A stretch of 64,000 nucleotides of DNA from Escherichia coli (GTDB lineage Bacteria; Pseudomonadota; Gammaproteobacteria; Enterobacterales; Enterobacteriaceae): the NCBI RefSeq assembly GCF_003334335.1, contig NZ_QOWQ01000014.1; one strand, given 5' to 3'. Below the pieces are notes generated by a model. The model had not been told where the DNA came from. It searched no databases and saw only the letters and a program-made list of their open reading frames with translations. Every line of letters begins with the position of its first letter. Positions within the stretch are counted from its first letter, which is position 1. A program made the position numbers and the translations under genes. Shown piece after piece: positions 1,551-13,211 of the stretch.

Positions 1551-2354
1551 TTAACGCTTCAGAGCGTCGCTTAACTCGTCACGCATGTTCGCCAGCATGG
1601 CTTTAACAACGCGCGGGTTACCAGCAACGATGTTACCGGTCAGCATGTAGTTATGACCACCGGTGAAGTCGCTGACGATGCCGCCCGCTTCACGAACCAG
1701 CAGCTCGCCTGCGGCGAAGTCCCACGGGCGCAGACCGATTTCAAAGAAACCGTCAACACGACCCGCAGCGACGTAAGCCAGATCCAGCGCCGCAGAACCG
1801 GTACGACGGAAGTCTGCACATTCGTTGAACAGTTTGCCGACGATGTTGATGTAGGTAGTGGCGTACTGTTTTGCTTTGAACGGGAAGCCGGTCGCCAGAA
1901 TAGTACCGTCGAGATCGCGAGCGGTGCTGCCGCGCAGTCGGTAGCCGTTCAGCTGTGCGCCCTGACCGCGAGTGGCGGTGAACAGTTCGTTACGCATAGG
2001 ATCGTATACCACAGCAACTTCGGTGCGGCCTTTGATACGAACAGCGATAGATACCGCGAAGTGCGGCAGACGTTTGATAAAGTTGGTAGTGCCATCCAGT
2101 GGATCGATAACCCATTGAACATCCTGATCAGTACCTTCAAGTTCACCGCTTTCTTCGGTGATGATGGTGTGCTGTGGGTAAGATTTACGAATCGTGTCGA
2201 TAATCACCGCTTCGGCAGCTTTATCTACGTTGGTCACGAAATCGTTACTGCCTTTCTGGCTCGCTTCTACAGCGTCCGGGGTTTCATAGTTTTTGGCAAT
2301 TAAATTACCCGCCTTGCGCGCTGCGCGCACGGCGATGTTCAGCATCGGATGCAT
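1551..2354 (-). CDS. suhB: Inositol monophosphatase SuhB
   Basis: ORF 267 aa, MHPMLNIAVRAARKAGNLIAK..., IMPase family motifs (DPLDGT, WDFAAG). Confidence 0.95.
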   Translation of the reverse strand: MHPMLNIAVRAARKAGNLIAKNYETPDAVEASQKGSNDFVTNVDKAAEAVIIDTIRKSYPQHTIITEESGELEGTDQDVQWVIDPLDGTTNFIKRLPHFAVSIAVRIKGRTEVAVVYDPMRNELFTATRGQGAQLNGYRLRGSTARDLDGTILATGFPFKAKQYATTYINIVGKLFNECADFRRTGSAALDLAYVAAGRVDGFFEIGLRPWDFAAGELLVREAGGIVSDFTGGHNYMLTGNIVAGNPRVVKAMLANMRDELSDALKR

Positions 2355-2472
2355 CGGTCTCTCTCACTGGATGTTAAAGAACGGGAAAACGGCGCAGAGT
2401 ATAGCAGCGAGATCGGCATCTGTCTTCGTTTTATGATAAGATGCGTGAATAATCTTTAGATGAAGAAAGACA

Positions 2473-3213
2473 ATGCTGCAAAATATTCGAATTGTGCTGG
2501 TGGAGACGTCACACACCGGCAATATGGGTTCTGTTGCCCGTGCCATGAAAACAATGGGATTAACCAATCTGTGGCTGGTTAATCCACTGGTGAAACCCGA
2601 CTCCCAGGCGATTGCCCTGGCAGCAGGGGCCAGCGATGTGATTGGTAATGCTCACATCGTCGATACGCTCGACGAAGCGTTAGCCGGTTGTAGCCTGGTG
2701 GTGGGCACCAGCGCACGTTCCCGCACGCTGCCATGGCCGATGCTCGACCCGCGCGAATGCGGCCTGAAAAGCGTCGCTGAAGCGGCAAATACCCCGGTGG
2801 CGCTGGTGTTTGGTCGCGAGCGCGTCGGCTTGACCAATGAAGAGTTGCAGAAATGCCATTATCATGTCGCGATTGCGGCTAACCCGGAATACAGCTCGCT
2901 GAACCTGGCGATGGCGGTTCAGGTTATTGCCTATGAAGTGCGCATGGCCTGGCTGGCAACTCAGGAAAACGGCGAGCAGGTCGAGCATGAAGAGACGCCG
3001 TATCCGCTGGTCGATGATCTGGAGCGTTTTTATGGTCATCTGGAACAAACGCTGCTGGCAACCGGTTTTATCCGTGAAAACCATCCGGGGCAGGTGATGA
3101 ATAAATTGCGCCGTCTGTTTACCCGTGCGCGCCCGGAAAGCCAGGAGTTGAATATCCTGCGCGGGATTCTGGCTTCTATTGAGCAGCAGAATAAAGGTAA
3201 CAAGGCCGAATAA
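2473..3213 (+). CDS. trmJ: tRNA (cytidine/uridine-2'-O)-methyltransferase TrmJ (SpoU family)
   Basis: ORF 246 aa, [30 protein letters not shown]...; sits directly upstream of the isc operon. Confidence 0.95.
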
Positions 3214-3395
<182 letters not shown>

Positions 3396-3440
3396 CAACA
3401 GGTACAAACGCCACGATAAAAAAATGGCACTGAAGGTTAA

Positions 3441-3490
3441 ATACCCGACTAAATCAGTCAAGTAAATAGTTGACCAATTTACTCGGGAAT
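3441..3490 (+). promoter_or_regulatory. Two adjacent IscR type-1 operator sites in the iscR promoter
   Basis: 3441..3465 atacccgactaaatcagtcaagtaa matches the type-1 consensus ATASYYGACTRwwwYAGTCRRSTAT at about 24 of 25 positions. 3466..3490 atagttgaccaatttactcgggaat is a weaker second copy. Both lie 85-135 bp upstream of the iscR ATG. Confidence 0.6.
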
Positions 3491-3573
3491 GTCAGACTTG
3501 ACCCTGCTATGCAATACCCCCACTTTTACAATAAAAAACCCCGGGCAGGGGCGAGTTTGAGGTGAAGTAAGAC

Positions 3574-4062
3574 ATGAGACTGACATCTAAAGGGCGCTAT
3601 GCCGTGACCGCAATGCTTGACGTTGCGCTCAACTCTGAAGCGGGCCCGGTACCGTTGGCTGATATTTCCGAACGTCAGGGAATTTCCCTTTCTTATCTGG
3701 AACAACTGTTTTCCCGTCTGCGTAAAAATGGTCTGGTTTCCAGCGTACGTGGACCAGGCGGTGGTTATCTGTTAGGCAAAGATGCCAGCAGCATCGCCGT
3801 TGGCGAAGTAATTAGCGCCGTTGACGAATCTGTAGATGCCACCCGTTGTCAGGGTAAAGGCGGCTGCCAGGGCGGCGATAAATGCCTGACCCACGCGCTG
3901 TGGCGTGATTTGAGCGACCGTCTCACCGGTTTTCTCAACAACATTACTTTAGGCGAACTGGTTAATAACCAGGAAGTGCTGGATGTGTCTGGTCGTCAGC
4001 ATACTCACGACGCGCCACGCACCCGCACACAAGACGCGATCGACGTTAAGTTACGCGCTTAA
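3574..4062 (+). CDS. iscR: Fe-S cluster regulator IscR (Rrf2 family)
   Basis: ORF 162 aa, [65 protein letters not shown]... Confidence 0.97.
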
Positions 4063-5415: not shown

Positions 5416-5802
5416 ATGGCTTACAGCGAAAAAGTTATCGACCATTACGAGAATCCGCGTAACGTGGGTTCCTTTGACAACAACGACGAGAACGTCGGCA
5501 GCGGCATGGTGGGGGCACCGGCCTGTGGCGACGTGATGAAGTTGCAGATTAAAGTCAACGATGAAGGTATCATTGAAGACGCGCGTTTTAAAACTTACGG
5601 CTGCGGTTCCGCTATCGCTTCCAGCTCCCTGGTCACCGAATGGGTGAAAGGGAAGTCTCTCGACGAAGCGCAGGCGATCAAAAACACCGATATTGCTGAA
5701 GAACTTGAACTGCCGCCGGTGAAAATTCACTGTTCTATTCTGGCAGAAGACGCGATCAAAGCCGCCATTGCGGACTATAAAAGCAAACGTGAAGCAAAAT
5801 AA
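5416..5802 (+). CDS. iscU: Fe-S scaffold IscU
   Basis: ORF 128 aa, MAYSEKVIDHYENPRNVGS...; conserved cysteines and LPPVK motif. Confidence 0.97.
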   Translation: MAYSEKVIDHYENPRNVGSFDNNDENVGSGMVGAPACGDVMKLQIKVNDEGIIEDARFKTYGCGSAIASSSLVTEWVKGKSLDEAQAIKNTDIAEELELPPVKIHCSILAEDAIKAAIADYKSKREAK

Positions 5803-9169: not shown

Positions 9170-9346
9170 TTTCCGCGTCATGCTTCACGCCGCAGATGCG
9201 TTGGCTGCGCTCGTTCACCCCAGTCACATAGTTATCTATGCTCCTGGGGCTTCACTCACTTGCCGCCTTCCTGCAACGCGAATCATTTAGCGGAAAAATC
9301 CTGGGGCTGCCAACTGGCGGCCCTTTTACAAAGAAGGATAACTAAA

Positions 9347-10630
9347 ATGACAGAAGCGATGAAGATTACCCTCTCTACCCAACCTGCCGACGCGCGCTGG
9401 GGAGAAAAAGCAACTTACAGCATTAATAATGACGGCATTACCCTGCATTTGAACGGGGCAGACGATCTGGGGCTGATCCAGCGTGCGGCGCGCAAGATTG
9501 ACGGTCTGGGCATCAAGCATGTTCAGTTAAGCGGTGAAGGCTGGGATGCGGATCGCTGCTGGGCATTCTGGCAAGGTTACAAAGCCCCGAAAGGCACGCG
9601 TAAAGTGGTGTGGCCGGATCTGGACGATGCCCAGCGCCAGGAACTGGATAACCGCCTGATGATCATCGACTGGGTGCGTGACACCATCAACGCACCGGCA
9701 GAAGAATTGGGACCATCGCAACTGGCACAGCGTGCTGTTGATCTGATCAGCAACGTCGCGGGCGATCGTGTGACTTATCGGATCACCAAAGGCGAAGATC
9801 TGCGTGAGCAAGGTTATATGGGGCTGCACACAGTCGGACGCGGTTCAGAACGTTCTCCGGTATTGCTGGCGCTGGATTACAACCCAACTGGCGATAAAGA
9901 AGCGCCAGTGTACGCGTGCCTGGTAGGTAAAGGTATCACTTTTGACTCCGGCGGCTACAGCATCAAACAGACTGCGTTTATGGACTCGATGAAGTCGGAC
10001 ATGGGCGGCGCGGCAACGGTTACCGGGGCGCTGGCATTTGCCATTACGCGCGGACTGAACAAGCGCGTGAAGCTGTTCCTCTGCTGTGCGGATAACCTGA
10101 TTAGCGGCAATGCGTTCAAGCTGGGCGATATCATCACCTATCGCAACGGTAAAAAAGTTGAAGTGATGAACACTGATGCCGAAGGGCGTCTGGTGCTTGC
10201 CGATGGTCTGATTGATGCCAGTGCGCAGAAACCGGAAATGATCATTGATGCGGCGACCCTCACCGGGGTGGCGAAAACTGCGCTGGGTAATGATTATCAC
10301 GCGCTGTTCAGTTTTGACGATGCGCTGGCCGGTCGCTTGCTGGCGAGTGCCGCGCAGGAGAACGAACCGTTCTGGCGTCTGCCGCTGGCGGAGTTCCACC
10401 GCAGCCAGCTGCCGTCTAACTTTGCCGAACTGAACAATACCGGAAGCGCGGCGTATCCGGCAGGCGCGAGCACGGCGGCGGGCTTCCTGTCGCACTTTGT
10501 TGAGAACTATCAGCAAGGCTGGCTGCATATCGACTGCTCGGCGACTTACCGTAAAGCGCCGGTTGAACAGTGGTCTGCGGGCGCTACGGGACTTGGTGTG
10601 CGCACGATAGCTAATCTGTTAACGGCGTAA
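9347..10630 (+). CDS. pepB: Peptidase B (M17 leucyl aminopeptidase family)
   Basis: ORF 9260..10630. Start trimmed to ATG at 9347 ([21 protein letters not shown]...) for 427 aa. M17 motif NTDAEGRL. Confidence 0.93.
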
Positions 10631-10638
10631 ACTAATAT

Positions 10639-10736
<98 letters not shown>

Positions 10737-10771: not shown

Positions 10772-11548
10772 ATGTCCGAAACAAAAAACGAACTTGAAGA
10801 CCTGCTGGAAAAAGCAGCAACTGAACCGGCGCACCGCCCGGCCTTTTTCCGTACTCTACTGGAATCCACCGTCTGGGTGCCTGGTACGGCGGCGCAGGGC
10901 GAGGCTGTGGTTGAAGATAGCGCGCTTGATTTACAGCACTGGGAAAAAGAAGACGGCACCAGCGTCATTCCTTTTTTCACCTCGTTAGAAGCACTTCAAC
11001 AGGCGGTTGAAGACGAACAGGCATTTGTCGTAATGCCCGTTCGCACGCTGTTTGAGATGACACTTGGCGAAACGCTCTTCCTTAATGCCAAAATGCCAAC
11101 CGGTAAAGAATTTATGCCGCGTGAAATCAGTTTGTTGATTGGTGAAGAGGGAAATCCGCTGAGCAGCCAGGAAATCCTGGAAGGCGGTGAATCGCTGATA
11201 TTATCGGAAGTCGCAGAGCCGCCAGCACAAATGATTGATTCACTCACCACCTTATTTAAAACCATTAAGCCGGTGAAGCGTGCTTTTATTTGTTCAATTA
11301 AAGAGAACGAAGAGGCACAGCCTAATTTACTTATTGGCATTGAAGCCGATGGTGATATCGAAGAAATTATTCAGGCGACGGGAAGTGTAGCGACCGATAC
11401 ATTACCTGGCGATGAACCAATCGATATTTGTCAGGTGAAAAAAGGGGAAAAAGGAATTAGCCACTTTATTACCGAACATATTGCGCCATTCTATGAACGT
11501 CGCTGGGGTGGTTTTTTGCGTGACTTTAAACAGAATCGGATAATCTAA
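10772..11548 (+). CDS. sseB: SseB (enhanced serine sensitivity protein B)
   Basis: Track ORF starts at GTG 10763. ATG at 10772 gives MSETKNELEDLLEKAATEPAHRPAFFRTL... (258 aa). Confidence 0.9.
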   Translation: MSETKNELEDLLEKAATEPAHRPAFFRTLLESTVWVPGTAAQGEAVVEDSALDLQHWEKEDGTSVIPFFTSLEALQQAVEDEQAFVVMPVRTLFEMTLGETLFLNAKMPTGKEFMPREISLLIGEEGNPLSSQEILEGGESLILSEVAEPPAQMIDSLTTLFKTIKPVKRAFICSIKENEEAQPNLLIGIEADGDIEEIIQATGSVATDTLPGDEPIDICQVKKGEKGISHFITEHIAPFYERRWGGFLRDFKQNRII

Positions 11549-11860
11549 AATATGCCGCCCAAAGGGCGGCATTCGGGCTTACTTGCTGCTCTGAAGGTTG
11601 TTAACCACCAGTAAATTGTCGCCGGAGAGACTCCGGTTATTATTTACCTCGGTTAACAGCGCACCAGAAACAATAAGTACGATACAAAAGCACCGTATCT
11701 TCATTGTGCGGTCCATGCGAAGACCGCATCACGACAGCACCACTGGCGATATTGCCGCGATAGCAAGCGCTGTGAAACACCTGCATTTACGGCCACGGAA
11801 CATCCTTTCCTAAAGCCAGCGCCCGTTTGCGAGACGGCGGAAAGGGCCGCAGTGGATAAT
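11549..11860 (-). ncRNA. ryfA: RyfA-like ~300-nt transcript (small-protein mRNA / sRNA) in the sseB-sseA intergenic region; ends at the hairpin 11554..11570
   Basis: Minus-strand unit inferred from an intrinsic terminator oriented for the minus strand (stem gccgccc/gggcggc at 11554..11570, U-tract given by the complement of 11545..11553), a minus-strand TATTAT -10-like hexamer at 11866..11871 (no convincing -35 found) and the enclosed small ORF. Position matches my recollection of where ryfA lies relative to sseB. Exact ends are uncertain. Confidence 0.45.
11579..11716 (-). CDS. Candidate small membrane protein, 45 codons (41 from the second ATG at 11704): MDRTMKIRCFCIVLIVSGALLTEVNNNRSLSGDNLLVVNNLQSSK; TimP-like type I toxin candidate
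   Basis: Hand translation of the minus strand. Hydrophobic N-terminal segment IRCFCIVLIVSGALL followed by a polar Asn-rich tail. Stop codon lies 8 nt upstream of the terminator hairpin. No strong Shine-Dalgarno sequence seen. Below the ORF track's length cutoff. Confidence 0.4.
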   Translation of the reverse strand: MDRTMKIRCFCIVLIVSGALLTEVNNNRSLSGDNLLVVNNLQSSK

Positions 11861-12027
11861 ACACTAACAGAACAATAATAACTCTCTTTTGCTTGACAAA
11901 AAGAGAGTTACTGGCGAGTATTGTCTCCGCTGAGACGCGCTTGCATTACTACGGTAATACAACCTGCTGGAAAGGCCGCGAACCGGACCAGCAACAAAAA
12001 ACCGCCTGATTTTGGCGGTTTTTTGTT
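11834..12027 (+). ncRNA. sRNA-like module copy 1 (~194 bp): internal inverted repeat around TTGACA, conserved 22-nt box, intrinsic terminator
   Basis: Inverted repeat actctctttt/aaaagagagt flanks gcTTGACA (11893..11898). Conserved box cctgctggaaaggccgcgaacc at 11963..11984. Hairpin aaaaaaccgcc-tgatttt-ggcggtttttt near 11995..12027 with T-tracts on both strands, so strand assignment is tentative. Longest internal ORF is 12 codons. Confidence 0.4.
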
Positions 12028-12155
12028 TTTTAAAGGAAAGTGAATTTACATGTTTAAGTAATATCTTTTACCGGTTAGAATTTTTAATTTTGAGCAGGAT
12101 TTGTTTATATTTGTCTGAATTCGGACTAATAAGCCAGGTTATTTTATTACCGAAC

Positions 12156-12349
12156 ACGGCGGAAAGGGCCGGTGTCGATAATACGCTAAATAAACAATAA
12201 TTACTCTCTTTTGCTTGACAAAAAGAGAGTTACTGGTGAGTATTGTTTTGCTGTGAAGCACCTGCGTTGCTCATGTAACACAAGTCAACCTGCTGGAAAG
12301 GCCGCGAACCAGACTAGCAATAAAAAACCGCCAAATTCGGCGGTTTTTT
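12156..12349 (+). ncRNA. sRNA-like module copy 2 (~194 bp), diverged paralogue of copy 1
   Basis: Same architecture 322 bp downstream: identical start acggcggaaagggcc, same inverted repeat and TTGACA, identical 22-nt box at 12289..12310, terminator aaaaaaccgcc-aaattc-ggcggtttttt at 12322..12349. Central part diverged (roughly 75-80% identity by eye). Longest ORF 14 codons. The terminator also closes sseA on the minus strand. Confidence 0.35.
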
Positions 12350-12365
12350 ATTGCCTGTAAAATAC

Positions 12366-13211
12366 TTATTTCACTGGCTCAACCGGTAAATCTGCCCGCG
12401 CGCCCCATTCACTCCATGCGCCGTCGTACAGTTTCACGTTTGGCACATCCAGCGTCGCGAGTGCTAACAAAACCACGGCTGCCGTTACACCAGAGCCGCA
12501 GCTGACGATAATTGGTTTGTCGTAGCTGACGCCGCGACCAAAAAATATCGCATCCAGTTCATCGGTCGTTTTTAGTTCGCCTTCGCGCACCAGTTCCGTC
12601 CACGGAACATTCAGTGCTCCGGGAATATGTCCGCGACGTAAACCTGGGCGAGGTTCATCAACTTCTGCGTTAAAACGTGCAGCCGGGCGGGCATCAATAA
12701 TTTGCGCCGTATTTTCATGGCTTGCCAATAATACATCGGTTACTTTCACCACGGCTTCAGGATTAAACGCGGCGTTAAACTCTCCTTCCGGCAGCTCTAC
12801 TGCACCTTCTTCTAACAGCAGATCATCGCGCTGCCAGCCTGCAAGTCCACCCCCCAGAATCGACACTTTCTCTACACCAAAGGTGCGCAGCATCCACCAT
12901 GCTCGTGGGGCTGAGAAAAGATTACCTTCGTCATAGACAATCAGGTGCTTATCCTGGTTAACGCCTAATTCACGCATCGCCACGGCGAACGTTTCCGGGC
13001 GCGGCAGCATGTGCGGAAGCGGGGAAGTGTGATCAGAAAGCGCTTCGATATCAAAAAACACTGCGCCGGGAATATGTCCATTCAGATACTCCTGAGCAAC
13101 GTTACGATCCTCCTGTCCAGGCGACGCCATGCGGGCATCGATAATCTGAATTTCCGGGTCATCAATATGTTCGGCGAGCCAGTCGGCTCCTACAAACCAT
13201 GTCGTGGACAT
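12366..13211 (-). CDS. sseA: 3-mercaptopyruvate sulfurtransferase SseA (tandem rhodanese domains)
   Basis: ORF 12366..13370. Start trimmed to internal ATG (MSTTWFVGADWLAEHIDD...) for 281 aa. Catalytic-cysteine context CGSGVTA present. Confidence 0.9.
   Translation of the reverse strand: MSTTWFVGADWLAEHIDDPEIQIIDARMASPGQEDRNVAQEYLNGHIPGAVFFDIEALSDHTSPLPHMLPRPETFAVAMRELGVNQDKHLIVYDEGNLFSAPRAWWMLRTFGVEKVSILGGGLAGWQRDDLLLEEGAVELPEGEFNAAFNPEAVVKVTDVLLASHENTAQIIDARPAARFNAEVDEPRPGLRRGHIPGALNVPWTELVREGELKTTDELDAIFFGRGVSYDKPIIVSCGSGVTAAVVLLALATLDVPNVKLYDGAWSEWGARADLPVEPVK

Follow-up and report, generated by a model that had tools for sequence, protein, structure and literature searches.

For the Salmonella homologs of TimP, both the toxicity of the protein and its repression by a small RNA (sRNA) have been shown (PMC7667032). 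The 5' end of the sRNA TimR pairs with the 5' untranslated region (UTR) of timP and represses TimP translation; mutations on either side abolish control of timP, and compensatory mutants restore it (PMC7667032). Pairing with TimR destabilizes a pseudoknot that is required for initiation (PMC11228461). In S. dysenteriae, RyfB1 lowers RyfA1 and does not lower its sibling RyfA2, whose variable region differs (PMC5333039).

We analyzed a 64,000-nt stretch of E. coli DNA (NZ_QOWQ01000014.1; referred to below as the window), which contains the sseB–ryfA(timP)–sseA interval in its K-12-type form, 99.9 to 100% identical to K-12-type genomes. A first-pass annotation of this DNA had drawn attention to an AT-rich spacer between two sRNA modules and had proposed that it could be a decayed second toxin-antitoxin (TA) unit. 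Taking the evidence below as a whole, we think it likely that the locus is a K-12-type allele of timPR that went through tandem duplication and carries the scar of a 357-bp deletion, and that the sRNA of module 2 is most likely the working antitoxin.

The interval is organized around two direct repeats, D1 (positions 11834 to 11924 versus 12156 to 12246; 91 nt, 90% identical) and D2 (11960 to 12023 versus 12286 to 12349; 64 nt, 84% identical). Each module consists of a palindrome with back-to-back promoters, an sRNA body of ~100 nt, and a perfect bidirectional terminator; the coordinates of all features are collected in Table 1. The small hydrophobic open reading frame (ORF) noticed earlier beside module 1 can now be given a name: it is TimP, encoded within ryfA, and the window holds only one ryfA copy (the GA of the RF00126 model is 80 bits). 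The published 5' end of the sRNA ECS011 (sequence from PMC3175480) maps to 11927, 6 nt past the −10 element of the unit 1 sRNA promoter. The predicted architecture of the module 2 sRNA is the same as that of the module 1 sRNA, with fold z scores of −3.3 and −4.5, respectively. The module 1 terminator is predicted to act in both directions and would also stop minus-strand transcripts that cross the spacer. Upstream of this interval, a REP-like hairpin with a sub-threshold naRNA4/CssrE match (40.3 bits; GA, 59.5) lies between pepB and sseB at 10625 to 10669, adjoined by an ES036/CssrF-like match at 10673 to 10714. Upstream of pepB, at 9171 to 9295 on the minus strand, there is a sub-threshold match to the Rfam Vibrio antisense RNA AS5 (44.9 bits; GA, 96; E = 1.5e-7), which is probably a REP or structured intergenic element.

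Table 1. Features of the sseB–sseA interval (window coordinates)
Feature	Position	Strand	Basis or remark
sseB CDS	10772..11548	+	RefSeq annotation of the near-identical K-12 locus; ORF list; alignment
ryfA RNA (timP mRNA, type I toxin mRNA)	11547..11850	-	Rfam RF00126, 314.9 bits, full length
TimP toxin CDS, 41 aa	11579..11704	-	NCBIfam NF040796, 86.8 bits (cutoff 45); RefSeq timP annotation
TimR target site in ryfA 5' UTR, allele A	about 11771-11790		Allele typing; plus-strand letters TGTGAAACACCTGC
Unit 1 divergent promoters, back to back in palindrome I7	11872..11921	both	Promoter scan
Unit 1 timP promoter, TTGTCA-16-TATTGT	within 11872..11921	-	Promoter scan
Unit 1 sRNA promoter, TTGACA-17-GAGTAT	11893-11898 and 11916-11921	+	Promoter scan
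Module 1 sRNA, TimR/RyfB1-type antitoxin paralog, B-type seed CCGCUGAGACGCGCUUGC	11927..12027	+	Equals ECS011/IS129
Rfam IS128 span	11982..12190	-	RF00125, 262.1 bits, full length
Module 1 sRNA bidirectional intrinsic terminator (I6)	11993..12027	both	Perfect 14-nt arms; 3' hairpin of Rfam IS128
Inter-unit linker of the tandem timPR array, AT-rich, E. coli-specific	12028..12142		Present between units in arrays
sseB' remnant, 13 nt, TTTATTACCGAAC, left edge of the deletion	12143..12155	+	Identical to sseB 11465-11477
357-bp deletion junction	12155..12156		1 nt (A) microhomology
Leader remnant of the deleted second ryfA/timP, homolog of ryfA nt 1-17	12156..12172	-	D1 register 11834 = 12156; alignment
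Unit 2 divergent promoter pair, intact	12194..12243	both	Promoter scan; hexamers identical to those of unit 1
Orphaned timP2 promoter, TTGTCA-16-TATTGT	within 12194..12243	-	Promoter scan
Unit 2 sRNA promoter, TTGACA-17-GAGTAT	12215-12220 and 12238-12243	+	Promoter scan
Module 2 sRNA, TimR paralog, A-type seed GCUGUGAAGCACCUGCGUUGC	12249..12354	+	5' end predicted by homology
Bidirectional terminator (I5) common to module 2 sRNA and convergent sseA	12317..12354		19-nt arms, 95% complementary
sseA CDS, right-hand boundary of the locus	12366..13211	-	RefSeq annotation of the K-12 locus

Because the palindrome of the module 1 terminator ends at 12027, the unique segment between the modules is exactly 12028 to 12155. 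The GC content of this 128-bp spacer is 27.3%, compared to 52.3% for the whole window, and only 0.5% of 128-bp windows are equally low; a value this extreme, together with the exact position between the repeats, means that the AT-rich spacer described in the first-pass annotation is real and no chance feature. The same annotation had found no ORF on either strand. This holds for ATG ORFs of at least 8 codons, none of which occurs in the spacer, and needs correcting for two ORFs with other start codons that overlap it: a TTG ORF of 62 aa (12012 to 12200, plus strand), whose start lies inside the hairpin loop of the module 1 terminator, and a GTG ORF of 29 aa (12157 to 12068, minus strand), whose start codon overlaps the deletion junction. 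Both lack a Shine-Dalgarno sequence and an NCBIfam match, and neither frame is conserved in other spacer-bearing genomes, owing to frameshifts and different stops. The spacer is without any conserved or toxin-like ORF, and these two are purely mechanical.

The comparison of E. coli genomes for two intact small ORFs, which the first-pass annotation had recommended, brought to light tandem arrays with two or three copies of timP. Two complete timP-timR units are present in strains RS571, EC476, ES5, and PapRG-06-5, and three are present in MEW; the Rfam model likewise detects full-length ryfA twice in RS571 and three times in MEW. Each extra unit is made up of the linker, an 84-nt sseB 3' fragment (the part co-duplicated with timP, which corresponds to the last 84 nt of sseB, 11465 to 11548 in the window), a complete ryfA/timP gene, the pair of promoters, and an sRNA resembling TimR; in RefSeq, the sseB fragment is listed as a partial pseudogene. 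Save for one gap, the window allele aligns collinearly with these arrays, and the gap measures exactly 357 bp against RS571, EC476, ES5, and PapRG-06-5. The missing segment covers the remainder of sseB' and, apart from the first 17 nt, the whole of ryfA2/timP2. At the left edge the sequence ends in ...TTTATTACCGAAC, and at the right edge it resumes with ACGGCGGAAAGG..., which is the ryfA leader from nt 1 to nt 17, with one A common to both edges; in tandem genomes, the sseB match runs on past the 13-nt remnant into ATATTG(C/T)GCCATTCTATGAACG.... What the window allele retains is 13 nt of sseB', 17 nt of the ryfA leader, both divergent promoters, and the full TimR-like sRNA. The two remnants can be understood only as sequence flanking a deletion, and we therefore infer a polarity from the array to the K-12 type. 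The linker was absent at 80 other Enterobacteriaceae sseB loci, and a single unit lacking the linker is present in the outgroup species (E. whittamii, Citrobacter, Salmonella arizonae and diarizonae, and about 75 others); the duplication therefore arose within E. coli. The earlier idea that a toxin-plus-sRNA unit was duplicated and one toxin was then lost is supported by the two- and three-unit arrays and the single clean 357-bp deletion.

Two further arrangements were seen at this locus. The array of MEW (NZ_CM192120.1, positions 350 to 2300) is the largest that we encountered and reads timP(B)-timR(B), linker, sseB', timP(A)-timR(A), linker, sseB', timP(D-like)-timR(D), the letters denoting the specificity alleles described below; it is the sole example of the order B then A. 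In the B strain Rosetta2-DE3 (NZ_CP083274.1, positions 2300 to 3799), module 2 is followed by gltX and not by sseA, a sign that either the region was rearranged or the assembly differs, with the breakpoint at or close to the terminator of module 2.

The arrays also bear on the origin of the spacer. Judged from the alignments, 12028 to 12155 is linker (12028 to 12142) plus sseB' remnant (12143 to 12155), that is, a junction and a scar and not decayed coding sequence. The linker showed no similarity beyond that of shuffled sequences to timP, the sseA 3' end, module 1, or upstream sseB, with the exception of the 13-nt sseB remnant. We considered whether the spacer could be a longer, diverged sseB fragment, as a 9-nt match (ATATTTGTC) and a frame running from the linker into sseB' in MEW might hint, and rejected this, as 63 to 90% of shuffles gave an equal score. 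An origin from a remnant of Salmonella STM2534 is unsupported within the 80 Enterobacteriaceae species sampled, since no spacer homologs were found downstream of sseB in them. A search for a mobile or repeat origin of the linker gave no extra copies elsewhere in the genomes and no phage match, and the single "plasmid" match to the linker was a mislabelled 4.9-Mb chromosome.

The distribution of the locus was determined in 5426 complete E. coli genomes, from which representatives were fetched and aligned; the genome counts come from BLAST place-joining and are approximate. Every one of the 5426 genomes has ryfA, at 5604 places in total and up to three per genome, and there are therefore about 180 extra copies (about 180 to 200). 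The linker/spacer is present in 2244 of the 5426 genomes, always on the chromosome, only at the sseB–sseA locus, and at no more than two places per genome. The K-12 junction occurs in at most 1774 of the 5426, a count that tandem genomes inflate; these were counted by junction-specific probes and by ryfA copy excess, and a 420-nt probe also caught K-12-type genomes. Six architectures were recognized: a single unit (the majority), the two-unit array, the three-unit array, the K-12/window type, a linker followed by a divergent sRNA, and an IS-disrupted form. The fifth of these, in which the second toxin is missing, was found in 392 of the 5426 genomes.

The specificity of each unit could be read from the TimR site in the timP 5' UTR, the "variable region" of Fris et al. 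(2017), which covaries with the 5' seed of the sRNA. Alleles A, B, and D are matched toxin/sRNA pairs, and type C is an sRNA seed without a cognate toxin in the sample. All 14 of the 14 other units examined were matched (A-A, B-B, or D-D); unit 1 of the window alone is A/B, its diagnostic positions being A-like through 11826 and B-like from 11924 on. In the window, timP(A) adjoins the seed-B sRNA of module 1, and the seed-A sRNA is that of module 2 (seed-A-specific stretch, GCUGUGAAGCACCUGCG). When duplexes were computed from restricted segments (folding of whole ryfA with whole sRNA gave meaningless long-loop solutions), timP(A) paired with module 2 at −42.5 kcal/mol through a contiguous helix of 20 bp and with module 1 at −34.0 kcal/mol through one of 11 bp, compared to −44 to −49 kcal/mol for cognate timP/sRNA pairs elsewhere. 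The target-A site is present in 1975 genomes, compared to 2030 for the seed-A sRNA; these figures are consistent with co-retention, as judged from similar totals and not from matched genome lists. That every other unit examined has a perfectly matched neighbor argues that matching is selected. We infer that the sRNA of module 2 probably is the working antitoxin of the sole timP in K-12-type strains. The first-pass annotation had taken it for an orphan regulatory sRNA, a label that probably does not fit a module whose seed complements the 5' UTR of the surviving timP, whereas the module 1 seed fits another allele. The module 1 sRNA may repress timP(A) too, given its partial complementarity.

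Several other genomes add to the picture of allelic variation. In the 392-genome form (L007, positions 2095 to 2290; L003; L012), a divergent TimR-like sRNA with the C seed GAGUAGACGAGAUACACUUGCAG comes after the first ~108 nt of the linker; the promoter-proximal sequence of this sRNA differs, there is no ryfA leader remnant, and no cognate timP was found in the sample. Duplexes of the C-seed sRNA with the A, B, and D targets reach only −13 to −19 kcal/mol, and this sRNA looks like a genuine orphan antitoxin. In E. coli 06-00048 (~1700 to 1870), the direct repeats of the timP target site and the timR seed have apparently recombined, fusing GATAGCAAGCACTGTGGGGTGCCTGC to GTTGCTCCGGCAAC... and removing both promoters and the ryfA leader, with the IS3-family element ISEcB1 immediately downstream (1870 to 3227). 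In E. coli MSB1_4I (1357 to 2401), an IS1A is inserted between the linker and the C-type sRNA; the unit 1 sRNA seed of this strain is an A-like variant (GCTGTGAGGCACCTGCGTTGTTCATGC), and its timP target matches none of the A, B, and D patterns. A B-type unit is carried by E. whittamii, and a D-like unit is carried by the divergent "E. coli" SCPM-O-B-8794. The specificity alleles are older than the arrays, and this suggests either trans-species polymorphism or timPR allele exchange within Escherichia.

The spacer also lies inside an older sRNA prediction. It forms the central 128 nt of the 209-nt Rfam IS128 model (positions 1 to 209 matched on the minus strand; GA, 80 bits), a match absent from the first-pass annotation, and the model scores 165 to 214 bits on the linker of other architectures. 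IS128 was predicted from the succession of a promoter and a terminator; it gave zero reads and a negative strand-specific northern blot, and the authors regarded it as an artefact or as condition specific (PMC3175480). Shinhara et al. (2011) detected the antisense IS129 instead and renamed it ECS011 (PMC3175480). The ECS011 sequence in the supplement of that paper (PMC3175480) maps to 11927 to 11997 (plus strand), which identifies it as the module 1 sRNA. An old annotation, C0614, maps to 12167 to 12253 (plus strand) and abuts the module 2 sRNA. The IS128/IS129 pair reportedly stems from Chen et al. in 2002. The K-12 names ryfB and ryfC do not denote the local sRNAs: in K-12, ryfB stands for the shoB mRNA, which has no relation to Shigella ryfB1, and ryfC we take to be OhsC.

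The RNA structure predicted for the spacer is no more than expected by chance (minimum free energy of −10 kcal/mol; z = 0.22). The fold z score of the whole IS128, −4.1, stems from the terminator and from a hairpin created by the junction. In this predicted 5' hairpin (UAUUAUCGACAC...GUGUUCGGUAAUA; IS128 parts 11982 to 12027 and 12156 to 12190, minus strand), ryfA2 leader-proximal sequence pairs with the antisense of the sseB' remnant, and it exists only because the 357-bp deletion joined its two arms. On sequence grounds, IS128 is a chimeric predicted transcript that would begin at the orphaned timP2 promoter and run through the leader remnant, antisense sseB', and the linker to the module 1 terminator in reverse. 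The published negative northern blot suggests that such an RNA is unstable or not made.

If the spacer were a second toxin gene decayed by mutation and module 2 an orphan regulatory sRNA, the presence of two paralogous sRNA modules beside a single timP would be accounted for, and the spacer does lie roughly where a second toxin would be expected. However, local alignment of the spacer with ryfA on the two strands gave z scores of 0.6 and −0.9 against 200 shuffles, the Rfam ryfA model has no match in it, and in tandem genomes this spacer adjoins second and third copies of timP that are intact. A sequence that coexists with intact toxins is not itself a decayed one; the toxin was excised by one clean deletion to the right of the spacer and was not eroded, and the seed of module 2 fits the surviving timP better than does that of module 1. 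We regard this explanation as highly improbable. Module 2 might, on the other hand, be nothing but the terminator of sseA, its sRNA not being made and the module 1 sRNA alone controlling timP in spite of an imperfect seed. The bidirectional hairpin does end 12 nt from the sseA stop and is invariant in the alignment of all architectures, the module 1 sRNA has been detected experimentally, and its predicted duplex with timP(A) is still substantial at −34 kcal/mol; in the portion of PMC3175480 available to us, where the module 1 sRNA is abundant, the module 2 sRNA does not appear among the candidates. Yet module 2 shares its −35 and −10 hexamers, and the distance between them, with the expressed module 1, its body folds like that of module 1, seed A and target A occur in nearly equal numbers of genomes, and all other units examined have a perfectly matched neighbor. 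In S. dysenteriae, moreover, the TimR homolog is inactive on the sibling with a different variable region (PMC5333039). We consider it unlikely that module 2 is a terminator alone. The suggestion in the first-pass annotation of a terminator region shared with sseA is true but incomplete: module 2 also terminates sseA, and it has kept a promoter, a seed, and an sRNA body besides.

It could further be argued that the spacer encodes a functional minus-strand sRNA, IS128, made from the timP2 promoter and serving as cis-antisense partner or sponge of the module 1 sRNA, the 3' ~45 nt of which it overlaps. The full-length RF00125 match, promoter hexamers and spacing identical to those of the active timP promoter, and the bidirectional terminator are all compatible with this, and IS128 is listed as downregulated after exponential phase in one RNA-seq study (PMC4676190), in parallel with ryfA. 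Against it stand the zero reads and the negative strand-specific northern blot (PMC3175480), the use of a double-stranded probe in the earlier detection, the lack of structure beyond chance in the spacer RNA (z of about 0.2), and a 5' hairpin owed solely to the deletion junction. Where the array is intact, this DNA comes after the terminator of ryfA2 itself and was therefore not selected as the body of an RNA. A functional IS128 thus strikes us as quite improbable.

We favor a model in which a unit of ~680 bp, comprising the last 84 nt of sseB, the timP mRNA gene, the divergent promoters, and the TimR sRNA gene, was duplicated in tandem within E. coli, the units of the resulting array being joined by an AT-rich linker of ~115 nt. 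One illegitimate 357-bp deletion (between 12155 and 12156) removed the sseB' fragment and the second toxin gene. Unit 1 is chimeric, with the timP target allele A beside the sRNA seed allele B. A plausible order of events begins with a B-B/A-A array, as seen in MEW, from which the A target region would have moved into unit 1 before the 357-bp deletion took away the second toxin, by then redundant. We found no route by which a single event would turn a B-B/A-A array into the window allele; at least a conversion or exchange and the 357-bp deletion are needed. The unit 2 promoters are predicted to be active from their hexamers, and the module 2 sRNA would pair with the timP 5' UTR through 20 contiguous base pairs and block TimP translation, as Salmonella TimR does. 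The module 1 sRNA (ECS011) is an expressed but poorly matched paralog. The orphaned timP2 promoter would at most yield an unstable, unstructured read-through RNA of ~200 nt ("IS128") that ends at the module 1 terminator in reverse. More speculatively, and with doubts of our own, we raise the possibility that ~30% of E. coli, including K-12 and B strains, run a "swapped" timPR system, in which the distal module 2 is the essential antitoxin, kept by addiction to the mismatched unit 1, and the adjacent module 1 is a true orphan, free for other targets or buffered by antisense IS128 read-through.

This account offers an explanation for the long-standing and dubious annotations IS128, IS129, and C0614 in the sseA-ryfA intergenic region of a model organism, as by-products of a type I TA cassette that was duplicated and then partly deleted. 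It also has a practical side: experiments on ryfA/timP in K-12-type strains must weigh two TimR paralogs, of which the one adjacent to the toxin may be non-cognate. The six architectures, with their single, double, triple, toxin-deleted, and orphan C-type forms, constitute a natural series in which TA specificity alleles duplicate, shuffle, and decay. The searchable literature yielded no paper that describes the two TimR paralogs of K-12 or derives IS128 from a deletion, and neither the interpretation of IS128 as the scar of a deletion nor the swapped arrangement of the seeds appears to be described there.

All components of the locus are of known kinds, namely, the timPR type I TA system, the tandem ryfA siblings, and Rfam IS128, and no new kind of system is involved. 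The closest likeness is to the timP-timR loci of Salmonella and other enterobacteria (ryfA/STnc2070; Andresen et al., 2020, PMC7667032; PMC11228461), which occupy the same sseB–sseA locus and share the toxin mRNA of ~300 nt, the TimP family, the divergent sRNA of ~100 nt, the pairing with the 5' UTR, and the back-to-back promoters. In contrast to these single-unit systems, the window has two TimR paralogs per timP, the adjacent one mismatched in its seed and the distal one matched, and it carries a linker and a deletion scar between them. IS128, a prediction made from a promoter and a terminator, is explained here as the truncated leader of the deleted timP2 reading into the linker. Chromosomal type I TA loci that exist in several copies and have paralog-specific antitoxins (ldr/rdl, ibs/sib, zor/orz, and hok/sok remnants in E. 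coli) resemble the locus in their tandem or dispersed duplication, seed-specific cognate pairing, and frequent toxin loss or inactivation. Their antitoxins are cis-encoded as overlapping antisense RNAs, or the toxin partner is retained, whereas the sRNA of the window is divergent and non-overlapping and the matched pair is split by a mismatched paralog. In the ryfA1/ryfA2 and ryfB1/ryfB2 genes of S. dysenteriae (Fris et al., 2017, PMC5333039), the same cassette is duplicated in tandem, the sRNA is sibling specific by virtue of a 5-nt variable region, and the authors, too, speculated on duplication followed by loss (PMC5333039). That paper does not connect the IS128 region of K-12 to the array (PMC5333039). 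Both toxin mRNAs are intact in S. dysenteriae, whereas in the window the second one has been deleted.
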